Virus record (IMG/VR): IMGVR_UViG_2529293142_000033
DNA length: 54,512 nt
Reading direction: 5' to 3' (one strand)
Source of the DNA: a virus
Taxonomy: Duplodnaviria; Heunggongvirae; Uroviricota; Caudoviricetes
The notes below the pieces were generated by a model that saw only the letters and a list, made by a program, of their open reading frames with translations, was not told the DNA's origin and did no database searches. Below, in pieces: positions 1,071 to 54,512 of this stretch. How positions within the stretch are numbered: position 1 is the stretch's first letter; every line of letters begins with the position of its first letter. Position numbers and translations under genes: made by a program.

Positions 1071-1193
1071 ATGCACGGTAATTCTGAAATGCAAAAAATC
1101 AACCAAACCAGCGCAATGCCTGAAAAAACTGACGTTCACTGGAGTGGTCGGTTTAGCGTTGCACCAATGCTCGATAGGATGTACCGTTGTTGA
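1071..1193 (+). pseudogene. displaced original 5' end of dusA (attL side); first ~34 codons then unrelated sequence and stop
   Basis: translates MHGNSEMQKINQTSAMPEKTDVHWSGRFSVAPMLD then diverges; about 75-80 percent nt identity to the 5' end of the intact dusA at 53475; shared core atgctcga at 1167-1174. Confidence 0.8.
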
Positions 1194-1318
1194 AAAACAA
1201 GTAGTTATACACTCTGTGGGAGCCTATTGGGAACTCGGCGTTTTCATTTCAAGGTGTAATCCATACGCGGCTTAAGAATGAGATATAATGCGACTTTTAG
1301 TGTTCCGCTTGAGAGGCC

Positions 1319-1855
1319 ATGATGCTTACCCTGGACGAGATAGGTCAATCAGTACGTAACAATATCCAGTTGATTATTGATCATGTCGGCTTACCTCTTG
1401 CTGTTGGTCCGCTCAGTGATGATGATTACAAGATTCTGTGTGGTGGCTATGGTGAGCTTGAATGGGACTATGCGTTAAGTACCTATGGCAACTCCAGAGA
1501 AAAGTATGAGTTCTGCATAAAACTTGTTCAGCAAGGTCGGGTTCAGGGAATACCATCAGGAGCAGCAATTTGTGTTTATGGGGTTGAAGAAAACATCTTT
1601 CGTATCCATATGATCGAAAGGTTTTCTAGAGAAGATGAATCTCACCCATTGAAAGGGCGCATGGTTTTACTCACTCTTATGAGTGCTTTTATATTTTGTA
1701 AAGCTGTTGAATGTAAAGTTGTCCACATTGTAGAGCCAGTACCAGAACTGGTGCAGTATTACGAGTCTTTTGGTTTCCGCATGGAACAGTGCGGTTATGT
1801 GATGTCGGCAGTCATTGATGAGCTGCAGGATATCTTTCTTAAATTTGCTCAGTAG
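1319..1855 (+). CDS. hypothetical protein, possible GNAT-fold acetyltransferase-like (att-proximal cargo)
   Basis: 178-aa ORF; C-terminal segment (FRIHMIERF..VVHIVEP..LVQYYESFGF) resembles GNAT beta4-alpha3-beta5-alpha4 pattern without canonical QxxGxG; putative -10 tataat about 30 nt upstream. Confidence 0.5.
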   Translation: MMLTLDEIGQSVRNNIQLIIDHVGLPLAVGPLSDDDYKILCGGYGELEWDYALSTYGNSREKYEFCIKLVQQGRVQGIPSGAAICVYGVEENIFRIHMIERFSREDESHPLKGRMVLLTLMSAFIFCKAVECKVVHIVEPVPELVQYYESFGFRMEQCGYVMSAVIDELQDIFLKFAQ

Positions 1856-2051
1856 GTATAGACGAGAAGGGTCTACAAATTGTAGGATACCCGTCCAGAT
1901 TACCTTAAAGGTACATCTATGGCAGTCGTTTTGTGCTTAAACTACTAAGAAACGATGTCACCAATCGACATGATCGATTGGCATAAGTTAGCGAAACAAG
2001 CTAGCTTTAAAGAAAGGGTTAGAGACGCCTTTACTGTCTCGGGAGTTTTCT

Positions 2052-2225
2052 ATGAAAGATCAAAAAGCAACCAAGCCACAGGTTAAGTTCGACACAATGA
2101 AAGCATTCGCAGGTATGGGTGCTGCTGTTGAAGTTCTGATGAAGGCTGCTCCTAATGCGTTCACTCACGCTACTGTCTCTGGTAAAGAGCAGCAGGGTAA
2201 GCTTCGTCGTCGCAAAGCAGCATGA
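2052..2225 (+). CDS. small hypothetical protein (57 aa), Ala/Lys-rich
   Basis: ATG preceded by gggag RBS; followed immediately by strong terminator; below the 60-aa ORF-track cutoff. Confidence 0.4.
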   Translation: MKDQKATKPQVKFDTMKAFAGMGAAVEVLMKAAPNAFTHATVSGKEQQGKLRRRKAA

Positions 2226-2244
2226 TCATAGCTGGTGCTTTTTG

Positions 2245-2272
2245 AAAACCCGCCTTCAGGCGGGTTTTTTCT
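2245..2272. terminator. bidirectional rho-independent terminator
   Basis: aacccgcc ttca ggcgggtt hairpin with T-run on plus strand and partial U-run on minus strand; sits between convergent genes. Confidence 0.7.
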
Positions 2273-2581
2273 TTAGTGATGTTCTTTGCCCTTCTGTTTG
2301 ACTGTTCTGACCTGTTCCCACTCGATACGTCCTTCTTCTCGTCTTTTGTCTATGTATTCCGCAAGATCCTGAATATTGATGCAACGTTTTGCTTTTTGTG
2401 ATGTGCCGATGCGATATGTTGGAATGGGCAACTTACAAGCGTTTGCTTTTGCTTCTGCCGTGGCTGGACTCATACCAAAGTACTTTTGGCTAACTGCTGA
2501 GAGTTCAATGTTTGGGGTATTGAATTCAGCCATCAGTAAAAACAAGGTGTTCATAATTTTCTCCATCAAAACCGGCTGCAC
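2273..2581 (-). CDS. PrtN-like / excisionase-like small DNA-binding regulator
   Basis: 102-aa protein with KYFG..PATAE..LPIPTYRIG..IQDLAEYID pattern typical of pyocin-activator PrtN family. Confidence 0.65.
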   Translation of the reverse strand: MQPVLMEKIMNTLFLLMAEFNTPNIELSAVSQKYFGMSPATAEAKANACKLPIPTYRIGTSQKAKRCINIQDLAEYIDKRREEGRIEWEQVRTVKQKGKEHH

Positions 2582-2590
2582 CCGGGAAAA

Positions 2591-3163
2591 TCATAATTCT
2601 GTGCTGGTGGCAGGAATTAATTTCTGCCAGATAGCTGAAACATATTTGGCCTGATGACGAGCATCAGCCAGGGCGTTGTGCCGTTCGCCATCGAAAGGCA
2701 TGTCCATTTTTGGGTCGAATCCGATGGAACGCCCAAGCGTAACGATCGTGCGTACATCGTGATCATTCCAGTACGCCCATGGGCAGATTTGTCCTGCTCG
2801 TTCATAAGCTCCGCGTAAAATTACGTTGTCGAAGGTGGCCCCGTTACCCCAAACTTTTAAATATTTCGTATTGTCTGCGTGCCGATTAATGAAATGGCTC
2901 AGTTCAGAGAGTGCATCGCTGATCGACAAAGTATCATCAATACAGATTGCAGCTCGTGCTTCAGGGCTTTGTTTCAACCACCACAGGATGGTATCGCCGT
3001 CAGGTGTGGCCCCTTGCTCCATAGCACTGTCCAGGCTGACAACCGTATAGAATTCTTGTCCGATGTCTCCGGTTTCTGGAGTGAAGAACACCGCGCCAAT
3101 GGAAACGATCGGTGCATCCTTATTTTTCCCCATCGTCTCAAGGTCGATCATTAAGTTATTCAT
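2591..3163 (-). CDS. phage 3'-5' exonuclease (DnaQ-like fold)
   Basis: 190 aa; MIDLETMG..IVSIGAV N-terminal exo motif and conserved H/D residues downstream. Confidence 0.7.
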   Translation of the reverse strand: MNNLMIDLETMGKNKDAPIVSIGAVFFTPETGDIGQEFYTVVSLDSAMEQGATPDGDTILWWLKQSPEARAAICIDDTLSISDALSELSHFINRHADNTKYLKVWGNGATFDNVILRGAYERAGQICPWAYWNDHDVRTIVTLGRSIGFDPKMDMPFDGERHNALADARHQAKYVSAIWQKLIPATSTEL

Positions 3164-3474
3164 TACTTCACCTCCTGCGTTTCTTTGCTGCTGTGAATTC
3201 GCCAGTTACCGACGCCTTCCCATTCAAACTGGCGGTTACTAATTCGCGTCCAGCCCCTGCCGAAAAGCAAATCCAGATACCAGTATTTTAAAGTTCTGAT
3301 AATTGCTCTTACAGTTGGTTTGCATCCAGAAGTCTTTGATGCGCAAATAAAGCACCGAGTTATGCTCATGGCTTCTACAAAAGGCCAGATAAACCAAACC
3401 CAGATGCAAAGAGCCACGAACAACATGAGCGCGATGTTAGCCACTAAGCCAGACCAGTACAGATAATTGCTCAT
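3163..3474 (-). CDS. small membrane protein, hypothetical
   Basis: 103-aa ORF with two hydrophobic segments; start overlaps upstream gene stop. Confidence 0.45.
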   Translation of the reverse strand: MSNYLYWSGLVANIALMLFVALCIWVWFIWPFVEAMSITRCFICASKTSGCKPTVRAIIRTLKYWYLDLLFGRGWTRISNRQFEWEGVGNWRIHSSKETQEVK

Positions 3475-3857
3475 TGGTTGCCTCCACCTTGGCTCTGAAG
3501 CATGGCAGCGCGGCAGGCGTTCCAGCCATCAACATACCCAGCCATGATATATCGATTAAAACCCACCTCTTTCTGTGCGCGTGCCAGATTCATTTCCTCC
3601 GGCACGTGTACTGGCTGAGCTATATACAGCGGCTGAACATACCAACCCTTTGATAACCAACTGTCAGCAACGTTTTTACTCCGTGTTATTGCCGGAATAC
3701 CTAAGCCATTGTCTGAATGCAGCCATGCCACCGGCTCCTCTTCTAGCGATGCCAGAGCAATTTCATAAGCACGGCGCTCAATATCGTCTCGAACCTCTAG
3801 GCTGCTGATTCGTTCTTTGATTTCTTTAATCAGTTCTTTATTGGTAAATGTGGTCAT
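3471..3857 (-). CDS. hypothetical phage protein
   Basis: 128-aa ORF in operon context, coupled to neighbours. Confidence 0.5.
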   Translation of the reverse strand: MTTFTNKELIKEIKERISSLEVRDDIERRAYEIALASLEEEPVAWLHSDNGLGIPAITRSKNVADSWLSKGWYVQPLYIAQPVHVPEEMNLARAQKEVGFNRYIMAGYVDGWNACRAAMLQSQGGGNQ

Positions 3858-4219
3858 TATGCTCCAGCCTCCGGCGCTTTTGGCATTACTGCCCAGTGAG
3901 TGATATTGAAGTTTTCAAGGTCCCCGACCTGAAATGTCCACTGCCATTCTCCGGTTTCTTTTTGTCCCCAGGTGTACCAGAGAGAACGCCAGCCAATCAG
4001 CCAGCCTTCTCCGTTAGCATCAAATAACAGAACACTTTCATTTGCTGGTGGCAGTTCAGCTGACACTGGTATTATTTTGTTTTCCAGTGCCGCACATTTA
4101 GCTTCAAGCGCGTCGAATTTACGTACTAGGTACTCAGCATTTGTTTCGTTCACTTTCAGATCTCGCGGTACACATTTCCCGCGAAGAAACCCTTCCATTT
4201 CGAAAACATTCATGCGCAT
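3857..4219 (-). CDS. hypothetical phage protein (Trp-rich C-terminal domain, DUF551-like)
   Basis: 120-aa ORF, operon context. Confidence 0.5.
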   Translation of the reverse strand: MRMNVFEMEGFLRGKCVPRDLKVNETNAEYLVRKFDALEAKCAALENKIIPVSAELPPANESVLLFDANGEGWLIGWRSLWYTWGQKETGEWQWTFQVGDLENFNITHWAVMPKAPEAGA

Positions 4220-4746
4220 TTGCGTAACTCCGATAACTCGTTAAAACGTTCCATAAACATCCCGTAGGCATGGCTAGGTGCCAGTGGAATCACGTTGAAC
4301 ATCTCTGTTGCCGGGATGCCTTCCAGTACAGGCCAGAAAGAGCCATCATCAAGCCCGAGATCGCGGCGTTCGGTTGCCAGCATGATAAGATCGGCATATT
4401 TCACGGGCGTACTCATAACTGGGGGTAACCCGTATTTCTCACGGATTACGGCGTCAATTTTTTCTTCCATCCGTTTATAGTCAGGAAGAAGGCGTTTCAG
4501 TGGAGCGGGAATATCCTGGCAATACGCTTCTGTTGCATCATGCATTAACGCTTCAAAAGCAAATTCCTGCGGCACCAGCTGGCTGCAAAGCACCGCATGT
4601 TGGGCGACACTGTAGAAGTGAGAAAGATGACCGGCAAAGCGGCAGATATTTGAAAGGGAAACCGCGATATCGTTAATCACGATGTCGTCTTTATTTATCT
4701 TGTCATAATAAAAATGCTTCCCGGAAAAAGTTTTAATAAATGACAT
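4210..4746 (-). CDS. HD-domain phosphohydrolase (YfdR-like 5'-deoxynucleotidase)
   Basis: HD motif region (HFYSVAQHAV..EALMHDATEAY); start placed at ATG 4746 with ggagaa RBS rather than the longer ORF start at 4773. Confidence 0.7.
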   Translation of the reverse strand: MSFIKTFSGKHFYYDKINKDDIVINDIAVSLSNICRFAGHLSHFYSVAQHAVLCSQLVPQEFAFEALMHDATEAYCQDIPAPLKRLLPDYKRMEEKIDAVIREKYGLPPVMSTPVKYADLIMLATERRDLGLDDGSFWPVLEGIPATEMFNVIPLAPSHAYGMFMERFNELSELRKCA

Positions 4747-4873
4747 TTTGTTCTCCACGTATATGCGCTGCACCGCGCTGAGTTTGGGTAAAAGGAAGCC
4801 CTCACCATCCGGTGATTATTGAGTTAATTACGTTTCCATAAATGCCCCCGCAGGGGCATTTGCAGTAATGAAA

Positions 4874-5698
4874 TCAGGCGGTGAAAGTACCAATAAAGGT
4901 TTCTACGTTGCTGTCTTTGAATTTCTCAACAAGCAGATCACGAAATTCGTTAGCCATATCTTCCTGCACCGCTTCCAGCTGAATAATGCGCAGAACCAGT
5001 ACAGGACGATCGCCAGTGATAATGCTGAGGCGTAATTTAAACGGACGTTCTTTCAGACCTTCAAACGGAACGCATTTAAATTCAAATGCCACTGGCATAA
5101 TGTCTTTGGTCTTCGCTTCGACAGATTCCATCAGGGAGCGTTTGCCGCTGAAGTCATTATCTTCAAAATCAGCGGTCTGGTTTGCTTCAATCGTGATTTT
5201 ACGGACTGCCGCAGCCGCTTTTGTTGCCTGAATAGCGTCACCATTAGCATCAAAGCCCACAAGGTAGTCGGCCCAGTCTTCAATCCATTCTGCCAGTGAC
5301 TTCTGGGAGTTACGCTCGCCGTTAACAGACAACAGGGCAGAGAACGGTGCTGTCTTTTTCAGTTTGAGAGTGGCGGTGTTATCTGCGTGACCTGGTTCAT
5401 CAATAGTACCCAGGTTAAGTACACTGACGGCACGCATATTATCAGCATCGATAAAGCAGCGGGTGCCTTCATCTGCAAGATCTTTAGAATAACGGGTAAA
5501 GTCATCGATGCTGGCAGTGGAAAGCGCACCACGGAAACGGAAGCGATTTAAATTAAATTTTTCCAGATCATGAATGCGGAAATTCTCAGGCAATGCCACA
5601 GCATCGGCACCAATCTTACTGATAATTTCATTAACACCCTGAGCAGAAATAAGGGCATGGATTTGATTAATTGCGGTTGCGTCTAAGTTCTGAGACAT
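4874..5698 (-). CDS. DUF2303 (YfdQ-like) phage protein
   Basis: 274-aa ORF resembling the YfdQ family found in CPS-53-type prophages (recalled). Confidence 0.6.
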
Positions 5699-5763
5699 AA
5701 TAAGTCCTCACTATATAAAGATATTCAGTGATGAGATAAATAATCAGTTAATTAAGAACGATA

Positions 5764-6126
5764 TTAATGACCTGCTGCGCGTAGTTTTCCGTCAGGTTCA
5801 CCGGCAAGAGTCAGTAATTGTCCCTGGTCTTCCTGCAGAATAGTCAGGCGACCACCGCGATTGACATACATCGGCGTTTCGGTGGTGTCTTCTTCGGAAA
5901 TTTTCCCGCGGTTAGTCGGGCGAACATATGAGAGTTTGTGTTTGATTTTCACACGGTTCTCATCAAATGGTTCGATTTCCAGGTTGAGTGAGACCTTACC
6001 TTTGGTTTTCGTGTTCATCACACCTGAAGCGACTTCACTGAGAACTGCGCCGATTTTGGTTTCAAATACGCCGCCGTCCAGCTCCCCGATAAATGCCTGC
6101 ACATCAGTACTGCGTTCGCTAGCCAT
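5764..6126 (-). CDS. hypothetical phage protein (120 aa)
   Basis: start at ATG 6126 with gaggag RBS; the longer 182-aa ORF extension lacks an RBS. Confidence 0.55.
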   Translation of the reverse strand: MASERSTDVQAFIGELDGGVFETKIGAVLSEVASGVMNTKTKGKVSLNLEIEPFDENRVKIKHKLSYVRPTNRGKISEEDTTETPMYVNRGGRLTILQEDQGQLLTLAGEPDGKLRAAGH

Positions 6127-6989
6127 TTTGCTGCTCCTCATCATATCGACCCTGCAAGGTCGGTTGGTTTCTCCACAAAACAGAGAAGAACACCTGCGGT
6201 GGCAGCCGCCCGGATGGATTGGGTTATGAGCCCGTCGTCCGGTGATGCTCTTCTCTGTTTTGTAAAAAGAGCGGTACCAGCCGGAAGCAAGTGTACAAAC
6301 TGGTACCGCCAAAGCAGTGGCTGTTGTGGTGACCGGTGCTGATCTCCGGCTTGCGGTTATTTCAGACTCTCACGGGCGTTTAATTGCCCCGCCGAACAGC
6401 TCTTTTCCGCAATAGCTGCAATGTCTTTCGCGCATCAGCCTGCGCATTCACCACAACGCTGAGAGCACTTAGCCAGTTACGGCACCACACTTTGTCGCGG
6501 CTCCATAAATGCCCTCATCGTTGCCCCCTGGTCTCTTCCCAGGCGTCAAACCGAATCGCCACGCTGGTTAGGCGTCTTATCAGCATCATCATTGACTTGC
6601 ACATTCCGGCTACCTGGTTTGTTTGCCCGAGCAGGGAGTGGATAGTCCCCTTTAACGTCCCCAGACCGCTAACGACGCATGTGCCATACGCCGTGATACA
6701 ACAATATGTTCGGTATTAGTTACCAAAGAGACGATTACTCTTATGGTTGAATGTAATACCCATGTTGAATATTTTTCTTGCTTACTATTTGTTTTATCTA
6801 TGTGGTGAACTGGTTTTTGTTTACACAAGAAAAAGTTTTCTTAAGTAAGTTTACATTGTTTTGTCTTGCTATTTTTTTAAATTCAAGAACAATAAATTGC
6901 CGCTATCAGTAATTATTCTTTATGAAATTTTATAAATAACTCCCTGCTTTTGAGTTCTGTACGCAGTGTTTTTAGTTGTCGAGGACATA

Positions 6990-7199
6990 ATGGATAATCA
7001 AAATACACCTGTTTTTGATGTATGTGGTTGGTACTGTGTGCCCGTTAAAGATCATAATTCAGTTATAGTTCAACTGTCTTGTAAACAACCACCATTTGAA
7101 TCTGATAAAATTATCGAAAGTCCAATATATTCTTTTCCCATAAAAGAAATACCAAATCTCATAAATACATTACAAAACATTTATGAAGAAAATAATTGA
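6990..7199 (+). CDS. small hypothetical protein (69 aa) in AT-rich moron next to repressor
   Basis: ATG with gaggac RBS; preceded by about 270 bp very AT-rich DNA; followed by terminator. Confidence 0.45.
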   Translation: MDNQNTPVFDVCGWYCVPVKDHNSVIVQLSCKQPPFESDKIIESPIYSFPIKEIPNLINTLQNIYEENN

Positions 7200-7218
7200 T
7201 TATAAATCCAGTTCAAAA

Positions 7219-7248
7219 GTGAAGCGTCCATTTGGGCGCTTTTTTATT
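7219..7248 (+). terminator. rho-independent terminator
   Basis: gcgtcca ttt gggcgc hairpin plus T-run. Confidence 0.55.
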
Positions 7249-7394
7249 TACGAATCATTCCGGTCTTCGTATGCCCCGGACGGCTACTTCGTGGGCGTCC
7301 TGCCTGTTCGATATCTTATGTAGGTACATTATGTATCTGTAGGGTACATTGTCAAGTATAAAAAAACCTGCCGAAGCAGGTTCATAGACATTGA

Positions 7395-8068
7395 TCAGGC
7401 TTTAATTTTGTATCTTCTTGGTTTTCCTGAGAAAATAACTGTACCAATGATAGAGCAATTACCGTTTATCTTAATGTAAGGCTCAGGCCAGTTGGGGTTT
7501 AATGCTTTGAGATAACGCTGTGTCCCGTCTTCTATCAACCTTTTGAAGGTGGTTTCACCTGTATCGTGCATCAATGCAATAACGTCATCGCCGTGGCAGG
7601 CTGGTACTTCTGGATCGACAAAAATCATGTCTCCCGGACGGTACTCATCAATCATTGAATCACCAATCACCCTCAATATATAAGTCATTTCGCCACAGGG
7701 TACAGGGCAGGGATACGTTTCTGTTGTGCTCAAATCAACCTCAGAATAGCCAACTTCTTTCCATGCTCCGGCCTGTACCCATGATATGACAGGGACTAAC
7801 GTTATTTTTTATTAGTGATTGAAACATCAGGTTTTTTTGTGATGTTCGTTGTCTGGTGTTCTTGATCAAGCCATCCGACAGGCAGGTCGAAACATTTTTC
7901 GATGTGCCGTGCCATGCTGTCACCGATATTTTTAGTAGCGCCATCCCCCATAAACCTGCTGGTCTGGGTAGGCTCGCGATCAATCATGGTGGCAAAGGAT
8001 GAATTTCCGCCAACACCATCTCTCAGTTTTCTGGCGTTAGACCGCCGGATGTCATGGATTGTTTTCAT
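7395..8068 (-). pseudogene. CI-like repressor (N-terminal HTH plus C-terminal S24 LexA-type peptidase domain), reading frame broken by -1 shift at T6/A6 tract 7805-7810
   Basis: N-terminal ORF 7802-8068 (MKTIHDIRRSNARKL..) ends at the A-run; C-terminal frame from 7808 reads KITLVPVISWVQAGAWKE..GDSM (Ala-Gly autocleavage site and S24 motif); one extra A would fuse them. Confidence 0.75.
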
Positions 8069-8158
8069 AACGAAATTAAAACCTTTGTACCGATAAGGTA
8101 CAAGTATCTTGAAGGTTCATCTCAATCATGTAATATGTATACTGGAGGTACATGTTGT
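8069..8158. promoter_or_regulatory. divergent promoter/operator region between repressor and cro-like gene
   Basis: palindrome ctttgtacc-gataa-ggtacaag (8083-8103) and a further GGTACA half-site near the cro RBS. Confidence 0.55.
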
Positions 8159-8359
8159 ATGAAAGCGTATTGGGACTCTTTAACCAAAGAACAGCAGGGC
8201 GAGTTGGCCGGAAAAGTTGGCTCAACACCTGGCTACTTACGGCTGGTTTTCAATGGTTATAAAAAAGCCAGTTTTGTGCTGGCTAAAAAACTTGAGCAAT
8301 GCACGTCAGGTGCAATTACGAAATATGACTTAAGACCGGATATCTATCCGAAAGATTAA
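8159..8359 (+). CDS. Cro-like HTH regulator
   Basis: 66-aa protein starting at ATG 8159 with ggagg RBS; divergent from repressor. Confidence 0.65.
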   Translation: MKAYWDSLTKEQQGELAGKVGSTPGYLRLVFNGYKKASFVLAKKLEQCTSGAITKYDLRPDIYPKD

Positions 8360-8390
8360 CAGAACACCTTCAATTTTTAACCACAGAACG

Positions 8391-8954
8391 ATGAGGCTAA
8401 CCGTGGGTAAGCATCACTGGAAAGTAGAAAAACAGCCTGAGTGGTACGTGAAAGCTGTCAGAAAAACTATCGCGGCGTTGCCGGGAGGTTACGCTGAAGC
8501 TGCTGAGTGGCTGGATGTAACAGAGAACGCTTTATTCAACCGCCTTCGTGCAGATGGCGATCAGATTTTCCCGCTGGGATGGGCAATGATTTTACAGCGC
8601 GCGGCTGGCACTCACTACATTGCGGATGCTGTCGCACAGTCTGCTGGTGGGGTGTTTGTATCGCTTCCTGAACTTGAGGAAGTAGAGAACGCCGATATAA
8701 ACCAGCGCCTGCTGGAAGTCATCGAACAGATCGGGAGTTACTCAAAGCAGATTCGTTCGGCAATCGAAGATGGGGTAGTGGAGCCACACGAGCAGACAGC
8801 AATTAATGATGAGTTGTATCTGTCAATTTCGAAGCTCCAGGAGCATGCAGCACTGGTCTACAAAATCTTCTGCGCTCCAGAAAAGAGTGACGCCCGCGAG
8901 TGTGCAGCTCCGGGCGTCGTGGCGTTTTGTGTCTGTGGAGAAACTAACGCATGA
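8391..8954 (+). CDS. CII-like phage regulatory protein
   Basis: 187-aa ORF directly after cro-like gene; alternative GTG start at 8403. Confidence 0.55.
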   Translation: MRLTVGKHHWKVEKQPEWYVKAVRKTIAALPGGYAEAAEWLDVTENALFNRLRADGDQIFPLGWAMILQRAAGTHYIADAVAQSAGGVFVSLPELEEVENADINQRLLEVIEQIGSYSKQIRSAIEDGVVEPHEQTAINDELYLSISKLQEHAALVYKIFCAPEKSDARECAAPGVVAFCVCGETNA

Positions 8955-9099
8955 ACAGTTTAACGGCAAATAACCGTTTGTCGCAACAGCTGGTGGTCAG
9001 TGTCGCTGAACACCTGTTGTTACGGCATGAATGCAGATTACCAAATCACCTGGCTGTAAGTAACCACAGAGAACTTTACCTGACTGTGGGGGGCGAGTT

Positions 9100-9279
9100 G
9101 TGCAGGAACTTAACCGCTGGTTTCGTGACGGAAGAGGGCTTTATGTCCATGTTATTCGTTGGGAGCCAGAAACACAGCGCGTTATCTATCTTCGCAAAGA
9201 CTACCCGCATGAGTGCTTTAGTCCTTTGTGGAAATTCAGGCGTGATTTTGTTGAGTGTGAAGGACCACCAGCACATTGA
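9100..9279 (+). CDS. possible small protein (59 aa, Trp/Arg-rich)
   Basis: GTG start with gggggg SD 6-7 nt upstream; protein-like translation QELNRWFRDGRGLYVHVIRWEPETQRVIYLRKDYPHECFSPLWKFRRDFVECEGPPAH; frame differs from the listed 383-aa ORF. Confidence 0.35.
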   Translation: MQELNRWFRDGRGLYVHVIRWEPETQRVIYLRKDYPHECFSPLWKFRRDFVECEGPPAH

Positions 9280-9365
9280 TTCTGCCATTCCGGGACGTTA
9301 CACTGTTCAGGCACCTTATAAAACGGGTGCCGGGATTGGCGTCCTGAAATTGATTACTGAGCATA

Positions 9366-9390
9366 ACCGCGCTCATGCGGTTTTTTCGTG
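9366..9390 (+). terminator. rho-independent terminator (tR1-like) upstream of rha
   Basis: ccgcgctcatgcgg hairpin followed by tttttt. Confidence 0.65.
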
Positions 9391-18802: not shown

Positions 18803-18940
18803 GATGAGCGCTTGCTTTTGATAGTGTTAATTCATGAAGTTTAACTCCGCCAAAGTTATTTATTCAACCGCCCTTCAGGGCGGGCAGAAGCCTTCACATC
18901 GACACTGAGGTCGCCATCCGGCGGCCTTTTTTGTACCCGA

Positions 18941-19513
18941 ATGAAAACCTTCATCTGTACTGCCAGCGGTCCTTCGCTGTCTGCTGAGGACTGCCGGTTT
19001 ATTGCGGACTGCGGTCTGCCTGTCATCGCCGTTAACAGCACCTGGAAACGGGTTCCTTTTGCCACGCACGTGTTTGCCTGTGACTTCTCCTGGTGGAAGG
19101 CCTGCGTCCGTCACATCACCATTCCGGCTCAGCGCTGGACTGACAGCCGGGCTGCTCACAAGCGCTTCGGCATTAACTTCTTTCCTGAAGAGCGCGGCTC
19201 TCCGGTTAACTCCGGCAGACGGGCCATTGAGTTTGCGCTCTGGCTGGGCGCGGAGCGGGTGATTCTGCTGGGATATGACTGCTCCGTCTCACGCGGAACA
19301 CACTGGCACGGTGACCATCCGGAGGGGCTTAAGAACCCGACGGAGAACAGCACGCGTCTGTGGCGGAGCGAATTTGAAAAACACGCGCCCGTACTGAATG
19401 CACGGGCGGAAATCATCAACTGTTCGGTGGAAACAGCCCTGACCTGCTTTCCCCGGAGACGGCTCAGGGAGGTTCTTGATGCCACTGTCAAAAAGTCGCC
19501 CCGTGTATGTTAA
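18941..19513 (+). CDS. hypothetical protein (190 aa), translationally coupled to downstream glycosyltransferase-like gene
   Basis: ORF overlaps next gene by 38 nt; contains a GAERVILLGYDCS Rossmann-like strand; no confident family. Confidence 0.5.
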   Translation: MKTFICTASGPSLSAEDCRFIADCGLPVIAVNSTWKRVPFATHVFACDFSWWKACVRHITIPAQRWTDSRAAHKRFGINFFPEERGSPVNSGRRAIEFALWLGAERVILLGYDCSVSRGTHWHGDHPEGLKNPTENSTRLWRSEFEKHAPVLNARAEIINCSVETALTCFPRRRLREVLDATVKKSPRVC

Positions 19514-20411
19514 GGGAATGCACGGGATTGGCGACAACATTAACCAGCGAATGTTCATTGATGCGCTTTCGCGTGCCGGATACAGGGTGGAGCTACAGAC
19601 ACCCCTGCCGCAGCTTTACGCGGACCTGCCGGGGGTGACCTTCATTCCCTCGGAGACCACCCTGCGTACCCAGCAGAAAAATGAGCAGCGGGCCTACAGG
19701 AGCCTGCCGTACATCGCCCGCCCCTCAGCGGATGCACAGCGTATCCGCATCATGCATGACCGGCAGACGAAGGGGCGGGGGGAAAGCGTCGTTATGACAA
19801 TGACACGACAGTTCGGGATTGCGCCAGCTCCGGCGTCTCTTCCGTCGTTCAGGCGTTCATCACTGGTGGTGACCGACAAACCGGTGGCGGTGATTCGTCC
19901 GACAACGGTGCGTAATGAGTGGAAGACCACCTCCCGTGGACCGCTGAATGAGTACATCGACATGGCCTCGCGGATGCTCGCTGCGCGCGGCTATCACTGT
20001 GTGAGTGTGGCAGACCTTAACGAGTCTGATGCCTGCGAAAAGCGTCGCGAATGGATTGACGGCATGGTGCCGTTTGCGCATCAGCGATTTCATCACGGTG
20101 AGCTGTCACTTGAAGAGCTGCTGTCACTGACTGAGAGCGCGGCTGTGGTGGTCTGCGGGGACTGTCTGCTGCTGCACGCAGCGATAGCGTACGGTACCCC
20201 GCTGCTGGCCATTCTTGGTGGCATGGGCGGTGCCTGTCGTCCTGAGATTATTGCTGACCCGTCCCACTATGACCTGTCGAAGGTGTGCTTCATTAAGCCG
20301 GACAATTTCTGTCTGTGTCATGAGATGACGCACGACTGCGACAAGCACATCAGCGGAGTGGAAGGCAAAATCGCGGCGTTTCTGGATGGCCCCGTATTCA
20401 GGGGAGGCTGA
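19476..20411 (+). CDS. putative GT-B glycosyltransferase, family 9 (heptosyltransferase)-like
   Basis: N-terminal RPVYVKGMHGIGDNI and C-terminal VVVCGDCLLLHAAIAYGTPLLAILGG resemble the two signature segments of ADP-heptose:LPS heptosyltransferases (by eye). Confidence 0.5.
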   Translation: MMPLSKSRPVYVKGMHGIGDNINQRMFIDALSRAGYRVELQTPLPQLYADLPGVTFIPSETTLRTQQKNEQRAYRSLPYIARPSADAQRIRIMHDRQTKGRGESVVMTMTRQFGIAPAPASLPSFRRSSLVVTDKPVAVIRPTTVRNEWKTTSRGPLNEYIDMASRMLAARGYHCVSVADLNESDACEKRREWIDGMVPFAHQRFHHGELSLEELLSLTESAAVVVCGDCLLLHAAIAYGTPLLAILGGMGGACRPEIIADPSHYDLSKVCFIKPDNFCLCHEMTHDCDKHISGVEGKIAAFLDGPVFRGG

Positions 20412-46709: not shown

Positions 46710-46907
46710 CTTTCTGCGTATTTTCATGAAAGGAGATCACTCAATAACTTCCATCGAGATCGGGTAATAACATTTGAACAGATCGCTGAATAACATCGAT
46801 GGAGATCACTTTTGACTCATTTTGTTATTCAGTGATCTCCATCAATGTTATTGGAACTTCACAGGTGTGTTGATCTGTATCTTTTGCCATTCCGGTAAAG
46901 GATACCT

Positions 46908-48449
46908 ATGCCAACAGTTCCAATTTCTATGAGAAAACTTAAAGAAATTCTTAGGCTTAAATACGGTGTTGGACTCAGCCATCGACAAATTGGTCGTAGT
47001 CTTGCAATCTCCCCTTCCGTTGTATCCAGATATGCTAATCGGGCGGCTCAACTTGGCATAAAGCAGTGGCCCTTACCTACAGGATGGGATGATACAAAAC
47101 TAAAACATGCGTTCCTTCAGACCCAGGTTAAGATGAAGAAGCACTCTCTGCCTGACTGGGCTACAGTACACCGGGAACTGCGTAATAAATGCGTGACGCT
47201 GCAGCTACTCTGGGAAGAATACTGTGAGCGTAATCCAGGCGGTTTTTACAGCTATAACCATTACTGCCGGATGTACCGTGAATGGCTCAAAACCACTTCA
47301 CCATCAATGCGTCAGGTACATAAAGCTGGCGAAAAACTTTTCGTTGATTACTGTGGACCTACCGTTGGCGTTACCGACCCTGAGACCGGAGAAATAAGAA
47401 CTGCTCAGGTCATCGTAGCTGTTCTCGGGGCATCAAGTTACACATGGGCAGAGGCCACCTGGTCTCAGCAGCTTGAAGACTGGGTGATGAGTCATGTTCG
47501 CTGCTTCCAGTGGTTGGGTGGCGTTCCTGAACTTGTTGTTCCGGACAATCTGAAAAGCGCCACATCCAGGGCATGTAAGTATGATCCTGACGTTAACCCT
47601 ACCTACCAGCAGATGCTTGAGCATTATAATGTCGCAGTTTTGCCTGCGCGGCCACGTAAACCGAAAGATAAAGCCAAAGCTGAAGTTGGCGTTCAGGTTG
47701 TTGAACGCTGGATCATGGCCCGAATCAGGCATGAGATCTTCTACAGCCTTGCATCGCTTAATCAGCGCATTCGGGAGTTGCTGGAAAGACTGAATAACAA
47801 AATAATGCAGAAGTTGGGTTATTCACGTGCAGAACTCTTCATCCAGCTTGATAAACCCGCACTGAAGCCTCTTCCTGAAGCCAGTTACAGTTACACCCTG
47901 GTGAAGAAAGTCAGAGTTCATGCCGATTACCACGTGGAAATCGACAAACATTACTACTCGGTTCCATGTTCGCTGTTAGGCCAGCAACTGGAAGCATGGA
48001 TCTCCGGAGAACTGGTAAGACTCTTCAATCAGGGGCAGGAGGTTGCTGTGCACCCGCGCAAGCGTACTTATGGCTACAGTACCCGCAACGAGCACATGCC
48101 TGAAGCTCATCGACAGCATGCCACCTGGACGCCAGAGCGTCTTCTGGAATGGGCGGGGCACATAGGCAGTGAAACTCATAGTTATGTGCTTCATATACTG
48201 AACTCTCGTCCACATCCGGAACAAAGCTATCGCTTCTGCCTTGGACTCCTGAACCTTCATAAAAAATACAGTAAAGCCAGACTTAATGCAGCATGTGCAA
48301 GAGCTCTGAAAACAAAGGTATGGCGTCTGTCAGGTATTAAATCGATCCTGGAAAAAGGTCTGGATAAACAACCTGTTCAGGATCCAAAACCAGATCTGTT
48401 ATCCACGATGGAACACGAAAACGTACGCGGCAGTGAGTATTACCACTGA
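46908..48449 (+). CDS. istA: IS21-family transposase IstA
   Basis: 513 aa with N-terminal HTH and DDE integrase-like core; followed by istB. Confidence 0.85.
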   Translation: MPTVPISMRKLKEILRLKYGVGLSHRQIGRSLAISPSVVSRYANRAAQLGIKQWPLPTGWDDTKLKHAFLQTQVKMKKHSLPDWATVHRELRNKCVTLQLLWEEYCERNPGGFYSYNHYCRMYREWLKTTSPSMRQVHKAGEKLFVDYCGPTVGVTDPETGEIRTAQVIVAVLGASSYTWAEATWSQQLEDWVMSHVRCFQWLGGVPELVVPDNLKSATSRACKYDPDVNPTYQQMLEHYNVAVLPARPRKPKDKAKAEVGVQVVERWIMARIRHEIFYSLASLNQRIRELLERLNNKIMQKLGYSRAELFIQLDKPALKPLPEASYSYTLVKKVRVHADYHVEIDKHYYSVPCSLLGQQLEAWISGELVRLFNQGQEVAVHPRKRTYGYSTRNEHMPEAHRQHATWTPERLLEWAGHIGSETHSYVLHILNSRPHPEQSYRFCLGLLNLHKKYSKARLNAACARALKTKVWRLSGIKSILEKGLDKQPVQDPKPDLLSTMEHENVRGSEYYH

Positions 48450-48460
48450 TACGGGATCCA

Positions 48461-49210
48461 ATGATGAATCATCTTTACGAACAACTGACCGCACTTAAAC
48501 TCACCGGCTTCCGTGATGCGCTTAAAAAGCAACTTGCTCAGCCGGGCACATACCAGGAGCTGGGCTTCGAAGAACGCCTGTCATTACTGACAGCAGAAGA
48601 ACTAACCTGCCGTGAAAACAGGAAGGCAGAGCGTCTGATCAAACATGCACGGTTCAGACTTAATGCTGAGTTATCAAAGCTGGATTATCGTAACAATAGA
48701 GGGCTGGACAGGGCCCTCATCCGTTCACTCAGTCAGGGAAACTGGTTAACCCTGAAACAAAATATTTTACTGACCGGGGCCACCGGCAGCGGTAAAACGT
48801 TCCTGGCATGTGCACTTGGTCATAATGCCTGCCGACAGGGATACAAGGTCTACTATTATCGCCTTAAAGCGCTGATGGAACAGTGCTATCAGGGGCATGC
48901 TGATGGAAGATACAGCAAACTTTTGACCAGGCTGAATAATAGCGATCTGCTGCTTCTGGATGACTGGGGGCTGGAACCTCTCTCATCAGAACAGCGTAGC
49001 GACCTGCTGGAAATAGTGGATCTGATGTACCAACGAGGCTCAATCATCGTAGTGAGCCAGTTGCCGGTGGAAAACTGGTACAAAATGATCGGAGACTCCA
49101 CACATGCGGATGCCATCCTAGATCGACTGGTTCATGGCAGTATCAAGATCGAACTTAAAGGAGAATCAATGCGGAAAATACAATCTCCGTTGACCGAAGG
49201 AGATCAGTGA
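48461..49210 (+). CDS. istB: IS21-family ATP-binding helper IstB
   Basis: 249 aa with Walker A LLTGATGSGKTF and Walker B LLLLDDWG. Confidence 0.85.
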   Translation: MMNHLYEQLTALKLTGFRDALKKQLAQPGTYQELGFEERLSLLTAEELTCRENRKAERLIKHARFRLNAELSKLDYRNNRGLDRALIRSLSQGNWLTLKQNILLTGATGSGKTFLACALGHNACRQGYKVYYYRLKALMEQCYQGHADGRYSKLLTRLNNSDLLLLDDWGLEPLSSEQRSDLLEIVDLMYQRGSIIVVSQLPVENWYKMIGDSTHADAILDRLVHGSIKIELKGESMRKIQSPLTEGDQ

Positions 49211-49267
49211 AGGTAATTTAAAAACGGTTCTGTGAAAGTGACACGAACCGATCTCCATCGATGTTAC

Positions 49268-49978
49268 TCACCGATCTCCTTCACGGTAATACGCACTTTC
49301 CACACAGGCATTGTCATAACAGTAGCCTTTCGCACTCATACTGCCACGCAGGTTGTGTCGCTTCAGCAGCGCCTGATAATCCCCTGAACAGTATTGACCA
49401 CCACGGTCCGTATGAACAATGACGCTTTCCGGGCGTCTTCTCCGCCACAACGCCATTTGCAGTGCATCACAGGCCAGTTGTACTGTCATTCGCGGTGACA
49501 TCGACCAGCCAATGACGGCGCGTGACCACAGGTCGATGACTACTGCGAGATACAACCAGCCCTCATCGGTACGCAAGTATGTGATGTCACCCGCCCACTT
49601 CTGGTTCGGGCCACTGGCGCTGAAGTCCTGCTCCAGCAGATTCTCCAATACGGGCAGGCCATGTGCACGGTAGCTGACCGGGCTGAACTTCCGGCTGGCT
49701 TTCGCCTGCAGCCCCTGACGACGTAGGCTGGCGGCAATGGTTTTAATATTGAACTCCGGCAGTTCGTCAGCAAGGCGGGGAGCACCGTATCGCTGCTTTG
49801 CCTCAAAGAATGCCTTATGGACAGCGGCATCGCAGGTGAGCCGAAACTGTTGGCGCAGGCTCATCTGGTGACGACGCCTGAGCCAGACATACCAGCCGCT
49901 GCGGGCAACCCGAAGTACACGACACATCACTTTGATGCTGAACTCTGCCCGATGATTTTCGATGAAGACATACTTCAT
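49268..49978 (-). pseudogene. IS3-family transposase orfB, 5' part (truncated by IS21 insertion; last codons read into IS21 end)
   Basis: ..[46 protein letters not shown] then unrelated tail; matches IS3-family OrfB. Confidence 0.8.
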
Positions 49979-50199
49979 TTCAGGCGGACATTTTCAGCGG
50001 CCAGTTCGCTTTCGCGCTCTGACGAACTCATTTGTTGCTGCTGTTTACTGCGCCAGGTATAAAGCTGAGATTCATACAGGCTGAGTTCACGGGCTGCGGC
50101 GGCCACACCGATGCGTTCAGTGAGTTTCAGGGCTTCGTTACGAAATTCAGGCGTATGTTGTTTACGGGGCTTCTTGCTGATTGATACTGGTTTTGTCAT
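49975..50199 (-). CDS. IS3-family transposase orfA
   Basis: 74-aa HTH protein overlapping orfB start, typical orfA/orfB frameshift arrangement. Confidence 0.7.
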
Positions 50200-50299
50200 G
50201 AGTCACCTCTGGTTGAGAGTTTACTCACTTAGTCCTGTGTCCACTATTGGTGGGTAAGATCATTCTGATATCAGTCCAAAGCAAATGCATCAGTGTAAT

Positions 50300-51130
50300 T
50301 CAGAGAATGATTTTGGGATATGTAATGAAGTAATGCTTAAACTTTTTTGGAGTTATTCCAAAATATTCCCTAAATTTTTTTATGAAGTATGATGGACTCG
50401 ACATTCCTACTTCCGATGATATCTGAGATATCTGGAGATTGTTTTCGATTATAAGATCCATAGCTCTATTTAATCTTATTTGTAAAGCCATTCCGCTGAT
50501 GGTCAAATTTTCTTTTGCAAGTCGTTTTCTTACTGCAGACTCAGATAGGTGAAAATGCTTAGCTATATCCCGAACGCACCATTTTCTCTTTATGTTCATT
50601 TCAATAAATGCTCTTACCTTATCACTAAAGTGACTGACAGATGATGTAAGCAACGAACGAATGATGTAATCACGATCTTTGAATTTTGAGATAAAAAGTA
50701 GCGTCTTAATCAAAATTAGTTTTTCATCATTGGTAGTTGCAAGTTTTTTGAAAAAGAGTATAAGCTCATCTGTAGGCGTAAGTGTCAGTATTTTATCTCT
50801 TGATATTGCTGATTGATTAATTACCTGATGCCCTTTAAAGTAGATTTCTGCAATTACTCGTCGGAGTGTTTGTAGTTTATCCTCGTTGAATCTTATTGCC
50901 ACATATGGTTCTTTATGTTCATCATTCTTTTTCAGGTAGGCAGAAAAACAAGTTCCTTTATCAATGAAAATGAATTGGTTAAACCCGCATGTCAGTTTTT
51001 TATTTGATAGTGAGAAATTAATAGTGCAATTATTTGTATAAAGAATGATATATTTACTGGTTCTTATGTTAACGATCTTTAACTTTCTTTGTGAATGATG
51101 TTTGATGCTATTAATCATGTGTTTAGCCAT
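50300..51130 (-). CDS. AraC-family transcriptional regulator (AT-rich, horizontally acquired)
   Basis: 276 aa; C-terminal double-HTH (VRDIAKHFHLSESAVRKRLAKENLTISGMALQIRLNRAMDL..ISQISSEVGMSSPSYFIKKFREYFGITPKKF); markedly AT-rich gene. Confidence 0.8.
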   Translation of the reverse strand: MAKHMINSIKHHSQRKLKIVNIRTSKYIILYTNNCTINFSLSNKKLTCGFNQFIFIDKGTCFSAYLKKNDEHKEPYVAIRFNEDKLQTLRRVIAEIYFKGHQVINQSAISRDKILTLTPTDELILFFKKLATTNDEKLILIKTLLFISKFKDRDYIIRSLLTSSVSHFSDKVRAFIEMNIKRKWCVRDIAKHFHLSESAVRKRLAKENLTISGMALQIRLNRAMDLIIENNLQISQISSEVGMSSPSYFIKKFREYFGITPKKFKHYFITYPKIIL

Positions 51131-52026
51131 TTTTTTGGGGTGTGGTAATTATAACTATCAACTTCCTCAATGGAATATCTTGGCATTAAAAATAGGATGT
51201 TTTTATTAAATTTTGGCCGCTGTGGTTAAAGTAAAGGATGAGTTAATATCCAGTCCATCCTTAATGGGAGTGATTAGTTCACCATCAGATAAATCGTAAG
51301 TGGTGTTTTTGGGGGCTCGTCAAGCTCAAAAATGGCCGGGAGAAAATTGGATATAACTACAGGGTAGGACTTACGAAAGTGACAGAGTTGCTATAGGAAT
51401 ATAAAAACATTCATGGTGAACTGGGGTCTGAAAAGTCACATGCCCTCATTAGAAATGGTAGCATTTTAAGTGTGGGAATGAAAAACAGAAGAGCAAAAAT
51501 CATCCATAATATGTAGAATTAGATCATGTCAACCCATATTTAGTCCTTGTTCGATAGCAAGCCTCATTGACTTCGCCGTTATCACCAGATATGGCGAGTT
51601 CTTTGTAAGTGGGAGAGCTATTTTTAGATGTCGTGCAGCAGACATTTTTGCCGAGCGCTTCATCCGGAGCGATGAACCGTAGATTTTTCTGGTTGGAGCC
51701 GATCATATGTGATGCTATGGGGATATTTTTTCAGTAGGCTAGGTGGGAATTGTACCGTTAATATTATAGGCTTCTACCCAGTAAAAAGAGGCGAGGAAAC
51801 ATGCACGACAGGTGCTACACGTCATGCATAGATTGGGATTACTCATGACTAGCCACAGCTATAGGTCGTTAAGAGATTCGCAGCACGCTGTATGCAATAA
51901 CGTGCTGCGGCTGGCTGGTGAACTTTCGATAGTGCGAGTATTGAATGATTTCCAGCCGTTACCGATTTTACGTGTTTATTATTGAACAAACCACTCGTCA
52001 GCAGACTCCCTGGTATCTTTCAGAGT

Positions 52027-52227
52027 CTACTGAACAAATGTTTTTGCAGAATCCTTATCTGCGGTGCGTGTAACAGAAAGCTCATCATTGCTGGTGGCTT
52101 TTACGATCACTTCTACATCGTCATAACGCTTACTGATGCGCCGAGTTAATTCTTCCTTTAACGCATCCACAGCACTGTTTGGCATTTTAGTCATTTTCTC
52201 TTTGGCTATGCAGATATCAATACGCAT
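52027..52227 (-). CDS. DinI-like protein
   Basis: 66 aa, [26 protein letters not shown] resembles DinI. Confidence 0.6.
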
Positions 52228-52288
52228 AAAAATCCCTCCACGCTGTGTTTATATACAGTGTTATTTTTAACTGTGTAAATAAACAGTA

Positions 52289-53386
52289 TCAAGAGGTCTT
52301 GTTTCTGCTCCTTTGGAGTTCTTCAAAACGATTATGTAAAGATTTCGGATACAGTTCGGTATATACCTGCCATAGCACGTTTAATGAACGATGCCCTGTA
52401 ACCTGAGCGACTTCCTCAATACTAAAACCAGCCTCAAATAAGCGACTTGCCCCTTCCCTACGCAAATCATGGTATCGCAGATCTTTAATACCTAATTTGC
52501 TTCTTACCCTCTGAAATCCTGCGGTAACAGAAGTGCTGTTATATGGAAAAATGAATTCTGATTTTTGGGGTTGTTGCTGGACGATATCCCAGGCTTCCCC
52601 AAGCAAGGCAACTTTCATATGGTTGCCTTCCTTTTTACGTGGATCTTTCCTATCTCTTACTAGTATAGATTTTTGTTCCTGGTCGAGATCTTCCCATCGT
52701 AACCGGCATACTTCTCCAATTCGCATACAGGACCACACAGAAAATTTGAGGATATCAACGAACGGAATTTTTGAGCATTTATGAGTAGATCGTTGTTGAA
52801 GGCCTTCAATGAGCATGTCCAGTTCATCAGATGCTGGTCTACGATTACGACGGTTTGATTTACCAATCAAACCGAGTTTAAGTAGATATGGACGAGCGCT
52901 TTTCGCCGGGTTTGATGTGTAATTGATTCCGTATACAGGTTTTGCCGCATCCAGAACACTGCCAAGATAACTAACATCGTGGCTGACTGTTGCTGGGCCT
53001 GCACCAGCGTTGTTTCTTAGCCTGCAATGTTCAATTACGTCATTTTCTGTCAGTTCAGATAGTTTGATCGCGGAGATGTCGCTATCCATAAGCAGTTCCA
53101 GCACATATCTTTTAGTACGGCCTGCTTTACCTCCGGCATTTGGGTCATTTAAATATTTGTGTAGTAAGTCACGGACTGTAAGTCCGTCAACAGCATTTGA
53201 TGATGGAATGCCATATAGATCTAATTCCATCACTTTCTGTGCGCCCCATGTTTTGGCATGAGCATGTTTAGGGAATGTTTTGCTTTCCCTGTAAGTGATA
53301 ACACCTTTTTCTTTGATAATCACATTACAGCGATAGCGTGGTGTGCCATCGGATTTTAGTCGTTTCTCTATGTTATAGTACGCCAT
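52289..53386 (-). CDS. tyrosine-type site-specific integrase (dusA-associated)
   Basis: 365 aa, C-terminal catalytic region with conserved R..H..R..Y pattern (..DLRYHDLRREGASRLFEAGF..VAQVTGHRSLNVLWQVYTELYP); immediately adjacent and divergent to dusA. Confidence 0.9.
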   Translation of the reverse strand: MAYYNIEKRLKSDGTPRYRCNVIIKEKGVITYRESKTFPKHAHAKTWGAQKVMELDLYGIPSSNAVDGLTVRDLLHKYLNDPNAGGKAGRTKRYVLELLMDSDISAIKLSELTENDVIEHCRLRNNAGAGPATVSHDVSYLGSVLDAAKPVYGINYTSNPAKSARPYLLKLGLIGKSNRRNRRPASDELDMLIEGLQQRSTHKCSKIPFVDILKFSVWSCMRIGEVCRLRWEDLDQEQKSILVRDRKDPRKKEGNHMKVALLGEAWDIVQQQPQKSEFIFPYNSTSVTAGFQRVRSKLGIKDLRYHDLRREGASRLFEAGFSIEEVAQVTGHRSLNVLWQVYTELYPKSLHNRFEELQRSRNKTS

Positions 53387-53474
53387 TACACGACCTCGTT
53401 ATTTCGGGTTCCCATAAAACGTGGGAACCTATGCGGGAACCTAATGCGAGAAAAATAGCCTGAAATGTTCAAAA

Positions 53475-54512
53475 ATGCACGATAATCATGAAACACAAAA
53501 AATTAATCAAACCAGCGTGATGCCGGAAAAAACTGGTGTTTACTGGAATTCTCGGTTTAGCATTGCTCCTATGCTCGACTGGACGGACAGACATTGCCGC
53601 TATTTCTTGCGTCTGCTTTCCCGCAATACGTTGCTGTATACCGAAATGGTGACCACAGGGGCGATTATTCACGGTAAAGGTGATTATCTGGCGTACAGTG
53701 AAGAAGAACATCCGGTAGCGTTGCAACTGGGCGGTAGCGATCCGGCGGCGCTGGCGCAGTGTGCAAAGCTGGCAGAAGCGCGCGGATATGATGAGATCAA
53801 CCTGAATGTCGGCTGCCCGTCTGACCGGGTGCAGAACGGCATGTTTGGTGCGTGTCTGATGGGTAATGCGCAGCTGGTTGCCGACTGTGTGAAAGCGATG
53901 CGCGATGTGGTGTCGATTCCAGTGACGGTGAAAACGCGTATTGGCATCGATGACCAGGACAGCTATGAATTTCTCTGCGATTTCATCAACACTGTTTCCG
54001 GCAAAGGCGAGTGTGAGATGTTTATCATCCACGCACGTAAAGCCTGGCTTTCGGGGTTAAGCCCGAAAGAAAACCGTGAAATCCCGCCGCTCGATTATCC
54101 GCGTGTGTATCAACTGAAGCGTGACTTTCCGCATCTGACAATGTCGATTAACGGTGGTATCAAGTCGCTGGAAGAGGCCAAAGCACACCTGCAACATATG
54201 GATGGCGTGATGGTCGGGCGCGAGGCGTATCAGAATCCGGGTATTCTGGCGGCAGTAGACCGGGAGATCTTTGGTTCCTCGGATACCGATGCCGATCCGG
54301 TGGCGGTAGTGCGCGCCATGTATCCGTACATTGAGCGTGAACTCAGCCAGGGGACGTATCTCGGCCATATTACCCGGCATATGTTGGGCTTGTTCCAGGG
54401 TATTCCTGGCGCGCGGCAGTGGCGGCGTTATTTAAGTGAAAATGCCCATAAAGCGGGTGCAGACATTAATGTGCTGGAACACGCGCTCAAACTGGTGGCG
54501 GATAAGCGTTAA
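53475..54512 (+). CDS. dusA: tRNA-dihydrouridine synthase A, full length with diverged 5' end
   Basis: 345 aa; body matches DusA; first ~34 codons differ from the displaced host fragment at 1071-1174. Confidence 0.9.

Follow-up and report, generated by a model that had tools for sequence, protein, structure and literature searches.

When a phage sits in the 5' end of a gene and a version of that 5' end is found on both of its sides, which version is native, which arrived with the phage, and what becomes of the gene? The question is posed by a stretch of 54,512 nucleotides (nt) recorded in IMG/VR as IMGVR_UViG_2529293142_000033, here called the window, in which an element of 52,404 bp (1175-53578), assigned to Caudoviricetes, lies between two 5' ends of dusA. 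The evidence is best explained by a temperate phage which integrated site-specifically into dusA and supplied a surrogate 5' end, a reading to which we give a probability of about 0.95. The arrangement is already known, and for this integrase and attachment-site (int-att) module it has been experimentally tested in phage 1720a-02. The initial annotation of the window, made from its letters alone, was a correct recognition of it, since studies of 1720a-02, of the DAI family and of Vibrio elements describe such integration.

Two dusA 5' ends and the polarity of the insertion

The initial annotation had described two diverged dusA 5' ends flanking an element, the left one (1071-1174) cut off past a shared core and the right one (53475-53578) heading an intact dusA beside an integrase. 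The coordinates and translations of both copies proved accurate. The left copy, whose open reading frame (ORF) starts at 1071 after a 362-nt spacer following a DUF2713 gene, translates as MHGNSEMQKINQTSAMPEKTDVHWSGRFSVAPMLD and then continues into foreign sequence, with a stop at 1203-1205; the right copy encodes the 35-residue start of a dusA of 345 codons, found as an ORF at 53475-54512. In a local blastn search the two copies aligned without gaps at 88 of 107 nt (E 7e-26), from 3 nt ahead of the ATG through the core. They differ at 20 positions in 105 nt, with nine codons changed non-synonymously and six synonymously. An exact octamer, ATGCTCGA, closes both of them (1167-1174 and 53571-53578), and beyond it the sequences diverge.

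From these ends the attachment sites read as follows: attB is GCACCAATGCTCGACTGGA, attP is GCTCCTATGCTCGATAGGA, attL is GCACCAATGCTCGATAGGA and attR is GCTCCTATGCTCGACTGGA. The exact core spans 8 bp, and the sites form semi-conserved direct repeats at both ends of the element, inside dusA. In attP the core falls inside TCCTAT-GCTCG-ATAGGA, a perfect inverted repeat with 6-bp halves about a centre of 5 nt, which matches what is expected of a pair of recombinase core sites. The attB of the window is identical to the published C. rodentium attB at 16 of 19 positions.

A synthetic empty site, in which left flank and left copy run straight on into the dusA body (700-1174 joined to 53579-54100; 997 nt), matches many E. 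coli chromosomes, e.g. O103:H2 12009, at 100% over its full length. The genome panel consisted of 5426 complete E. coli genomes, 3615 of which have an uninterrupted dusA site. The reverse construct, in which the right copy was set behind the native upstream region, found no full-length match above 95.3% in this panel; the bulk of the matches stood at 94%, the figure expected of the native allele against such a construct. The assignment of the left copy to the host, which the initial annotation had proposed, is borne out by the real genomes matching the left-copy join, and the nearest approach to an empty site of the right-hand type is that 95.3%. On the phage side, the predicted attP (53387-53578 joined to 1175-1900) is collinear with the genome of the free phage mEp460 (JQ182728), agreeing at 903 of 918 positions, gapless and straight across CCTATGCTCGATAGGATG; the right copy is therefore phage DNA, and the crossover falls inside the octamer. 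Mapped from the empty-site and attP joins together, the exchange is placed within the same 8 nt. All 20 differences between the copies partition in this way, the left copy having the native allele and the right copy, together with the intergenic region, following 1720a-02 (KF030445) at 190 of 193 nt.

The opposite polarity, with the right copy native and the left fragment brought in by the element, draws on the formal symmetry of two diverged copies and nothing more. It is refuted by the two empty-site comparisons and by the free phages mEp460 and 1720a-02, which hold the right-hand copy beside int, and its probability is negligible. Entry by general homologous recombination over the 104-nt, 82%-identical dusA homology is very improbable too. 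A homeologous stretch of about 100 nt is indeed available, and the surrogate copies of elements in Kosakonia, Phytobacter and Salmonella resemble local host alleles (MHGNLEM...HWSG), a sign that host and phage copies may exchange sequence now and then. However, none of the 20 differences falls on the wrong side of the final 8 nt, which confines the crossover to the very 3' tip of the homology. Moreover, 1720a-02 uses the identical point in C. rodentium, the junctions recur in hundreds of genomes (the int junction of the window in at least 727 of the 5426, the same attL junction in 335), and the core is embedded in a recombinase site which is palindromic.

Some variants of the locus are also worth recording. 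Two genomes of the panel (NZ_CP172819.1 and NZ_CP172818.1; H156 and H157) have uninterrupted dusA 5' ends which are some 4-5 nt nearer to the phage type (95.3% against 94.0%), and these alleles may be a trace of host-phage copy exchange. In the closest relative of the prophage (NZ_CP027550.1, L001) the left junction, at 790-880, is TTGCCCCGATGCTTGATAGG, with one core mismatch; it comes directly after zur, neither yjbM nor a native dusA fragment being annotated, which points either to a deletion or to some earlier event at this attL. The native dusA start was also considered as the fossil of an older element, on account of a weak 29/39 DNA match between 892-930 and the int coding region. This match was put down to chance: a profile hidden Markov model (HMM) of 36 integrases found no int remnant in the six-frame translation of 709-1070 (best E 0.19, in the wrong position), and the idea was rejected.

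Table 1. Features of the window, ordered by position (1-54,512); dusA' denotes the phage-borne dusA 5' end
Feature	Position	Strand	Evidence and remarks
Host flank, yjbM-type DUF2713 gene	1-708	+	Pfam PF10897, E 1e-165; within the 100% empty-site match
Native dusA 5' fragment at attL	1071-1205	+	Codons 1-35 (1071-1174) host, the rest phage DNA; identical to uninterrupted E. coli dusA
attL core ATGCTCGA, crossover region	1167-1174	+	Host-type bases to the left, phage-type bases to the right
P' arm direct repeats GGGAGCC (1218-1224) and GGGAACT (1229-1235)	1218-1235	+	Candidate arm-type sites; conserved in mEp460
orf178, GNAT-fold protein, first gene of a two-gene moron	1319-1855	+	phrog_4350; AlphaFold2 pLDDT 93.6
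orf57, small partner ORF of the moron	2052-2225	+	phrog_2741; always 3' of orf178 homologues
PrtN-family gene	2273-2581	-	PF11112, 82 bits; across attP from int
LexA/S24-type repressor gene with 1-nt deletion (frameshift)	7395-8068	-	674/675 against the intact NZ_CP027550 gene; a single gap, in an A7 run
Anti-repressor/Rha-like ORF	8951-10102		PHROG matches, C-terminal part
isrK-like small RNA (9311-9387) and C4 antisense RNA (9412-9499)	9311-9499	+	Rfam, above gathering score
tRNA cluster: Met/Ile2 (CAT), Arg (TCT), Thr (TGT), Gly (TCC)	16114-16423	+	ARAGORN, Rfam
Morphogenesis module	25333-46027	+	Collinear with the annotated closest relative (L001); Pfam for terminase
Baseplate assembly gene with premature amber	39158-40246	+	TGG to TAG at 39470-39472, W105*; 362 codons
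Nested insertion sequence (IS) elements	46730-50199		Pfam, NCBIfam, terminal inverted repeats; region absent from relatives
AraC-family regulator, cargo	50300-51130	-	Pfam HTH_18, HTH_AraC; NCBIfam matches all below cut-offs
DinI-like gene downstream of int	52027-52227	-	Pfam PF06183; order as in mEp460 and 1720a-02
dusA-specific tyrosine integrase, 365 amino acids	52289-53386	-	PF00589, E 9e-21
P arm repeats: inverted GGTTCCC (53407-53413), direct GGGAACC (53423-53429 and 53435-53441)	53407-53441	+	int-dusA' spacer
Phage-borne surrogate dusA 5' end, codons 1-35	53475-53578	+	In the mEp460 virion genome; peptide identical in 1720a-02
Chimeric dusA, 35 phage and 310 host codons	53475-54512	+	345-amino-acid ORF; TIGR00742
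attR core ATGCTCGA	53571-53578	+

Integrase, fused DusA and candidate arm-type repeats

The int gene is divergent from the right dusA copy, and 88 nt separate its start from the ATG of dusA'. Across 36 relatives the residues R222, H306, R309, H332 and Y342, i.e. the RHRH tetrad and the nucleophilic tyrosine, are conserved at 97% or more. The integrase (Int) is 99.2% identical to that of PhiR40_1, 98.6% (360/365) to that of 1720a-02 and 98.4% to that of mEp460, for which the GenBank note cites INT_Rci (cd00796); the integrases of Acinetobacter phages stand at 22-31%. As regards the target gene, the 35 surrogate codons end in RFSIAPMLD, in frame with the dusA body, and the fused DusA scores 581 bits against TIGR00742 (cut-off 397) over residues 27-342, a range which spans the junction. 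Judged by its sequence, the fused dusA looks functional.

A scan for relatives, limited to a single genome for each species, gave 52 related loci. About 33 of the 52 have a dusA divergent from int at a distance of some 78-230 nt, and the hosts of these range from Escherichia, Kosakonia and Pluralibacter to Xenorhabdus, Proteus, Vibrio and Shewanella. Surrogate starts are 35 codons long in all 26 examined; they begin with MH[EDGQ]N (MNEN in one case) and end with RFS[VI]APML[DN], and the part in between is hypervariable. Integrases 58-64% identical to that of the window occur in Xenorhabdus, Serratia and Pseudomonas lundensis (L024-L033, L046) with no dusA within 3 kb, and were presumably retargeted to another site.

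The AlphaFold2 model of Int has a predicted local distance difference test (pLDDT) score of 85. Residues 1-58 are modelled as a three-stranded sheet and a helix, at pLDDT values of about 80-94, followed by a helical core-binding domain and a catalytic domain. Foldseek aligned the model with full-length lambda Int over 359-369 columns (E 1e-9), with a template modelling (TM) score of just about 0.4. The model would thus give Int a three-domain build like that of lambda Int.

Short repeats lie in both arms of attP, and 5 of the 18 GGGARCY sites in the window fall in these two arms. Their layout is fixed across genera, with the inverted copy at about -67 and the direct copies at about -52 and -40 from the dusA' ATG, and the copies vary together by lineage, appearing as GGGGTGC, GGTGTAC or GGTGTCC (23 loci; repeat loci L004-L055 and L136-L139). 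In the Salinivibrio phage SMHB1, pairs of GGGAGACT flank an intact attP on both sides, and in the Klebsiella phage Kp4886-1 pairs of the GGGGTGCT type stand at both ends of the record. In a relative with other cargo at attL, homology to the window stops just past the second P' repeat. Viral contigs, scanned for intact attP sites of diverse lineages, yielded 98-99% relatives only, and the other attP lineages were drawn from GenBank phages. From their sequence and placement, the repeats may be the arm-type sites of a heterobivalent integrase, in which case attP would measure about 235 bp.

Taken together, the integration is best read as follows. The tyrosine integrase exchanged strands within the shared octamer, at dusA codons 33-35, attP lying immediately 3' of a phage copy of the first 35 dusA codons which has its own upstream region. 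The native 5' end was left stranded at attL and the phage copy fused in frame to the dusA body at attR; owing to this in-frame fusion the lysogen retains an intact DusA with an altered N-terminus. Three further steps are inferred: the N-terminal domain of Int would bind the three P-arm and two P'-arm copies of the lineage-specific repeats, excision would require the PrtN-type factor encoded at the attL end, and a phage promoter would drive the fused dusA.

Several observations weigh against this account or parts of it. The proposed arm-binding domain of Int has no match among Pfam or sequence profiles. The statistical support for the repeats is modest, since shuffled sequences reached the observed repeat value in 0-5 of 100 cases at the best loci and in up to 48 of 100 at the weakest. 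A consensus scan of the 88-nt int-dusA' spacer found no sigma-70 promoter, so that the notion of a phage-supplied promoter leans on the analogy with the Vibrio elements discussed below. The window is a single assembly, in which excision and the attP junction are not observable, and the frameshift in the repressor gene could be a homopolymer sequencing error.

The P-arm repeats, 40-68 nt upstream of the surrogate dusA start, might be more than arm sites, because the spacer is the sole stretch able to hold the promoters of both int and the fused dusA. It is conceivable, although we consider it unlikely, that they also tie fused-dusA expression to prophage state, through occupancy by Int or by the PrtN-type factor, and that pairs of repeat and N-terminal domain form a co-evolving specificity code. 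In the searchable literature no description was found of arm-type repeats for dusA integrases, nor of such a regulatory role or code.

Cargo at the attL end and the state of the prophage

The PrtN-family gene is probably the recombination directionality factor (RDF) of the element, equivalent to RdfN, as judged by analogy. Between it and attL lie orf178 and orf57, co-oriented with the stranded native dusA promoter, and an intrinsic-terminator-like hairpin was found by a terminator scan at 2244-2269, after orf57. The nature of orf178 as GNAT-like was determined by fold search alone: Foldseek returned GNAT acetyltransferases at about E 1e-6, with the tRNA-acetylating toxins AtaT, KacT and TacT among the neighbours, and sequence searches of PADLOC, Pfam, NCBIfam and the PDB gave no match. 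Its homologues travel with a downstream ORF of 56-58 residues in varied prophage positions and several genera (L141-L147); in Citrobacter, Edwardsiella, Photorhabdus and Shewanella the cassette sits after Q or in tail modules, each time with an upstream spacer of 200-300 nt. The orf178 of the window is 100% identical to that of mEp460 despite the differing att region. Scans found no terminator before 2244 and no promoter in 1175-1318, and a perfect TATAAT is visible by eye ahead of orf178. The idea that the stranded native dusA promoter drives orf178-orf57 after integration is no longer favoured; it is weakened by the occurrence of the cassette as a free-standing moron at other prophage positions.

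In the body of the prophage the early region is lambdoid, the RNAs isrK and C4 form a pair, and Q is followed by four tRNA genes; the head is lambda-like, and the contractile tail resembles those of Mu and SfV. Three E. coli genomes carry its closest relatives, prophages which likewise sit at dusA and are 97-98% identical to it. The morphogenesis genes encode a gpA-type terminase, portal, S49 protease, decoration and major capsid proteins, contractile tail, baseplate and tail fibres; a megablast search with this module against 50,697 deposited phage records found no match, and the nearest tail sheath, from the Citrobacter phage phiNP, is 60% identical at the amino acid level. The isrK and C4 matches fall inside the anti-repressor/Rha-like ORF, which is probably over-called, and the segment holding them resembles a control region of the P1 immI-like or the IsrK type. 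The tRNA cluster comes after the gene of the Q antiterminator, and just ahead of the holin a glycosyltransferase family 9 (heptosyltransferase-like) gene at 19476-20411 is a possible lipopolysaccharide-modifying moron. In place of the alpha/beta-hydrolase cargo of the closest relative, the window has the segment 46730-51130. Within it, ISEc12 of the IS21 family (about 46730-49281) carries istA (46908-48449) and istB (48461-49210), and a remnant of the IS3 family on the minus strand (49268-50199) abuts it; the AraC-family regulator comes next.

Such damage raises the possibility that the locus is by now a fixed immobile remnant, i.e. an ordinary chromosomal island with att and int as relics. 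The repressor frameshift, at a T run around 7804-7810, splits the helix-turn-helix part from the peptidase domain; the baseplate amber, which involves no indel, is unlikely to be a homopolymer artefact; and ISEc12 and the IS3 remnant add insertions. However, Int is full-length with all its catalytic residues in place, and viable phages have integrases 98-99% identical to it; both cores, all five repeats, the PrtN gene and the ORFs of terminase, portal, capsid and sheath are intact. Immobility is a possibility to be taken seriously, although we hold it to be the less probable state; it concerns the present condition of the element and not its origin, and is compatible with site-specific integration of a temperate phage as its source. 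The prophage is probably defective as a phage, and excision may still be possible even without the production of particles, given that int, the cores, the five repeats and the PrtN gene are intact.

Known dusA elements and significance

The initial annotation had likened the arrangement to that described for dusA-specific integrases, a comparison which agrees with three published studies (PMC4482086, PMC6328086, PMC8409611). Farrugia et al. (2015; PMC4482086) describe a distinct integrase family beside dusA in more than 200 bacteria, whose DAI elements have semi-conserved 21-bp att repeats and supply a 5' end which replaces the beta-1 strand; their Table S1 includes E. coli phage lysogens. The window shares with this family the divergent tyrosine integrase, the insertion at the 5' end, the imperfect end repeats and the new 5' end with its beta-1 strand. 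Nothing essential differs, and the arm-type repeats and the three-domain build are proposals of the present analysis.

Phage 1720a-02, an Stx2dact phage, integrates at a point 100 bp inside the dusA of C. rodentium, with a 7-base core and an in-frame phage dusA', and its attP junctions were recovered from infected mice, i.e. attP is regenerated in vivo (Balasubramanian et al. 2019; PMC6328086). Its surrogate peptide is identical to that of the window, as is its core, and the int-dusA' regions correspond at the 190 of 193 nt given above; it differs in being a 47-kb lambdoid Stx phage, whereas the phage of the window has a Mu/SfV-like contractile tail and IS elements and lacks stx. mEp460 shares the whole attP region and the orf178-orf57-PrtN-exonuclease block, although its surrogate dusA' differs from that of the window at about 10 of 104 nt and its side tail fibres are lambda-like. 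The int-att module of the window is thus carried by the lambda-like siphoviruses mEp460 and 1720a-02, and the difference in side tail fibres indicates that it is common to different morphogenesis modules.

Durand et al. (2021; PMC8409611) showed that in E. coli K-12 a dusA element brings with it a promoter and an N-terminus of 35 residues, that dusA expression is somewhat lower after integration, and that in a Vibrio element a PrtN homologue across attP, RdfN, is the excision factor. IMEVchUSA3 and the other Vibrio elements resemble the prophage in their target, the 35-residue N-terminus, the PrtN-type RDF across attP from int and, in K-12, the continuing expression of dusA. They differ in being SGI1-like mobilisable islands and not phages, and the Vibrio-group integrases are about 50-56% identical to that of the window. 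Likeness to lambda Int and other heterobivalent tyrosine integrases would extend to the predicted three-domain architecture, the candidate repeats in both attP arms and an attP of about 235 bp; in contrast, the N-terminal domain has no detectable sequence similarity to its lambda counterpart, and the RDF of the window is PrtN-like, not lambda Xis.

The locus provides a textbook-style case of a phage residing in the conserved tRNA-modification gene dusA without destroying it. Possible additions to the literature are the co-varying repeats of fixed layout and the sharing of one int-att module by phages with different bodies. Insertion at dusA is frequent: this integrase type is present there in at least 727 of the 5426 complete E. 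coli genomes, and up to a third of them lack an uninterrupted site. For annotation it follows that in such strains the first 35 codons of dusA and the region upstream of them are phage DNA, and that the short dusA fragment at the far end of the prophage is the true native start of the gene and not a separate pseudogene.

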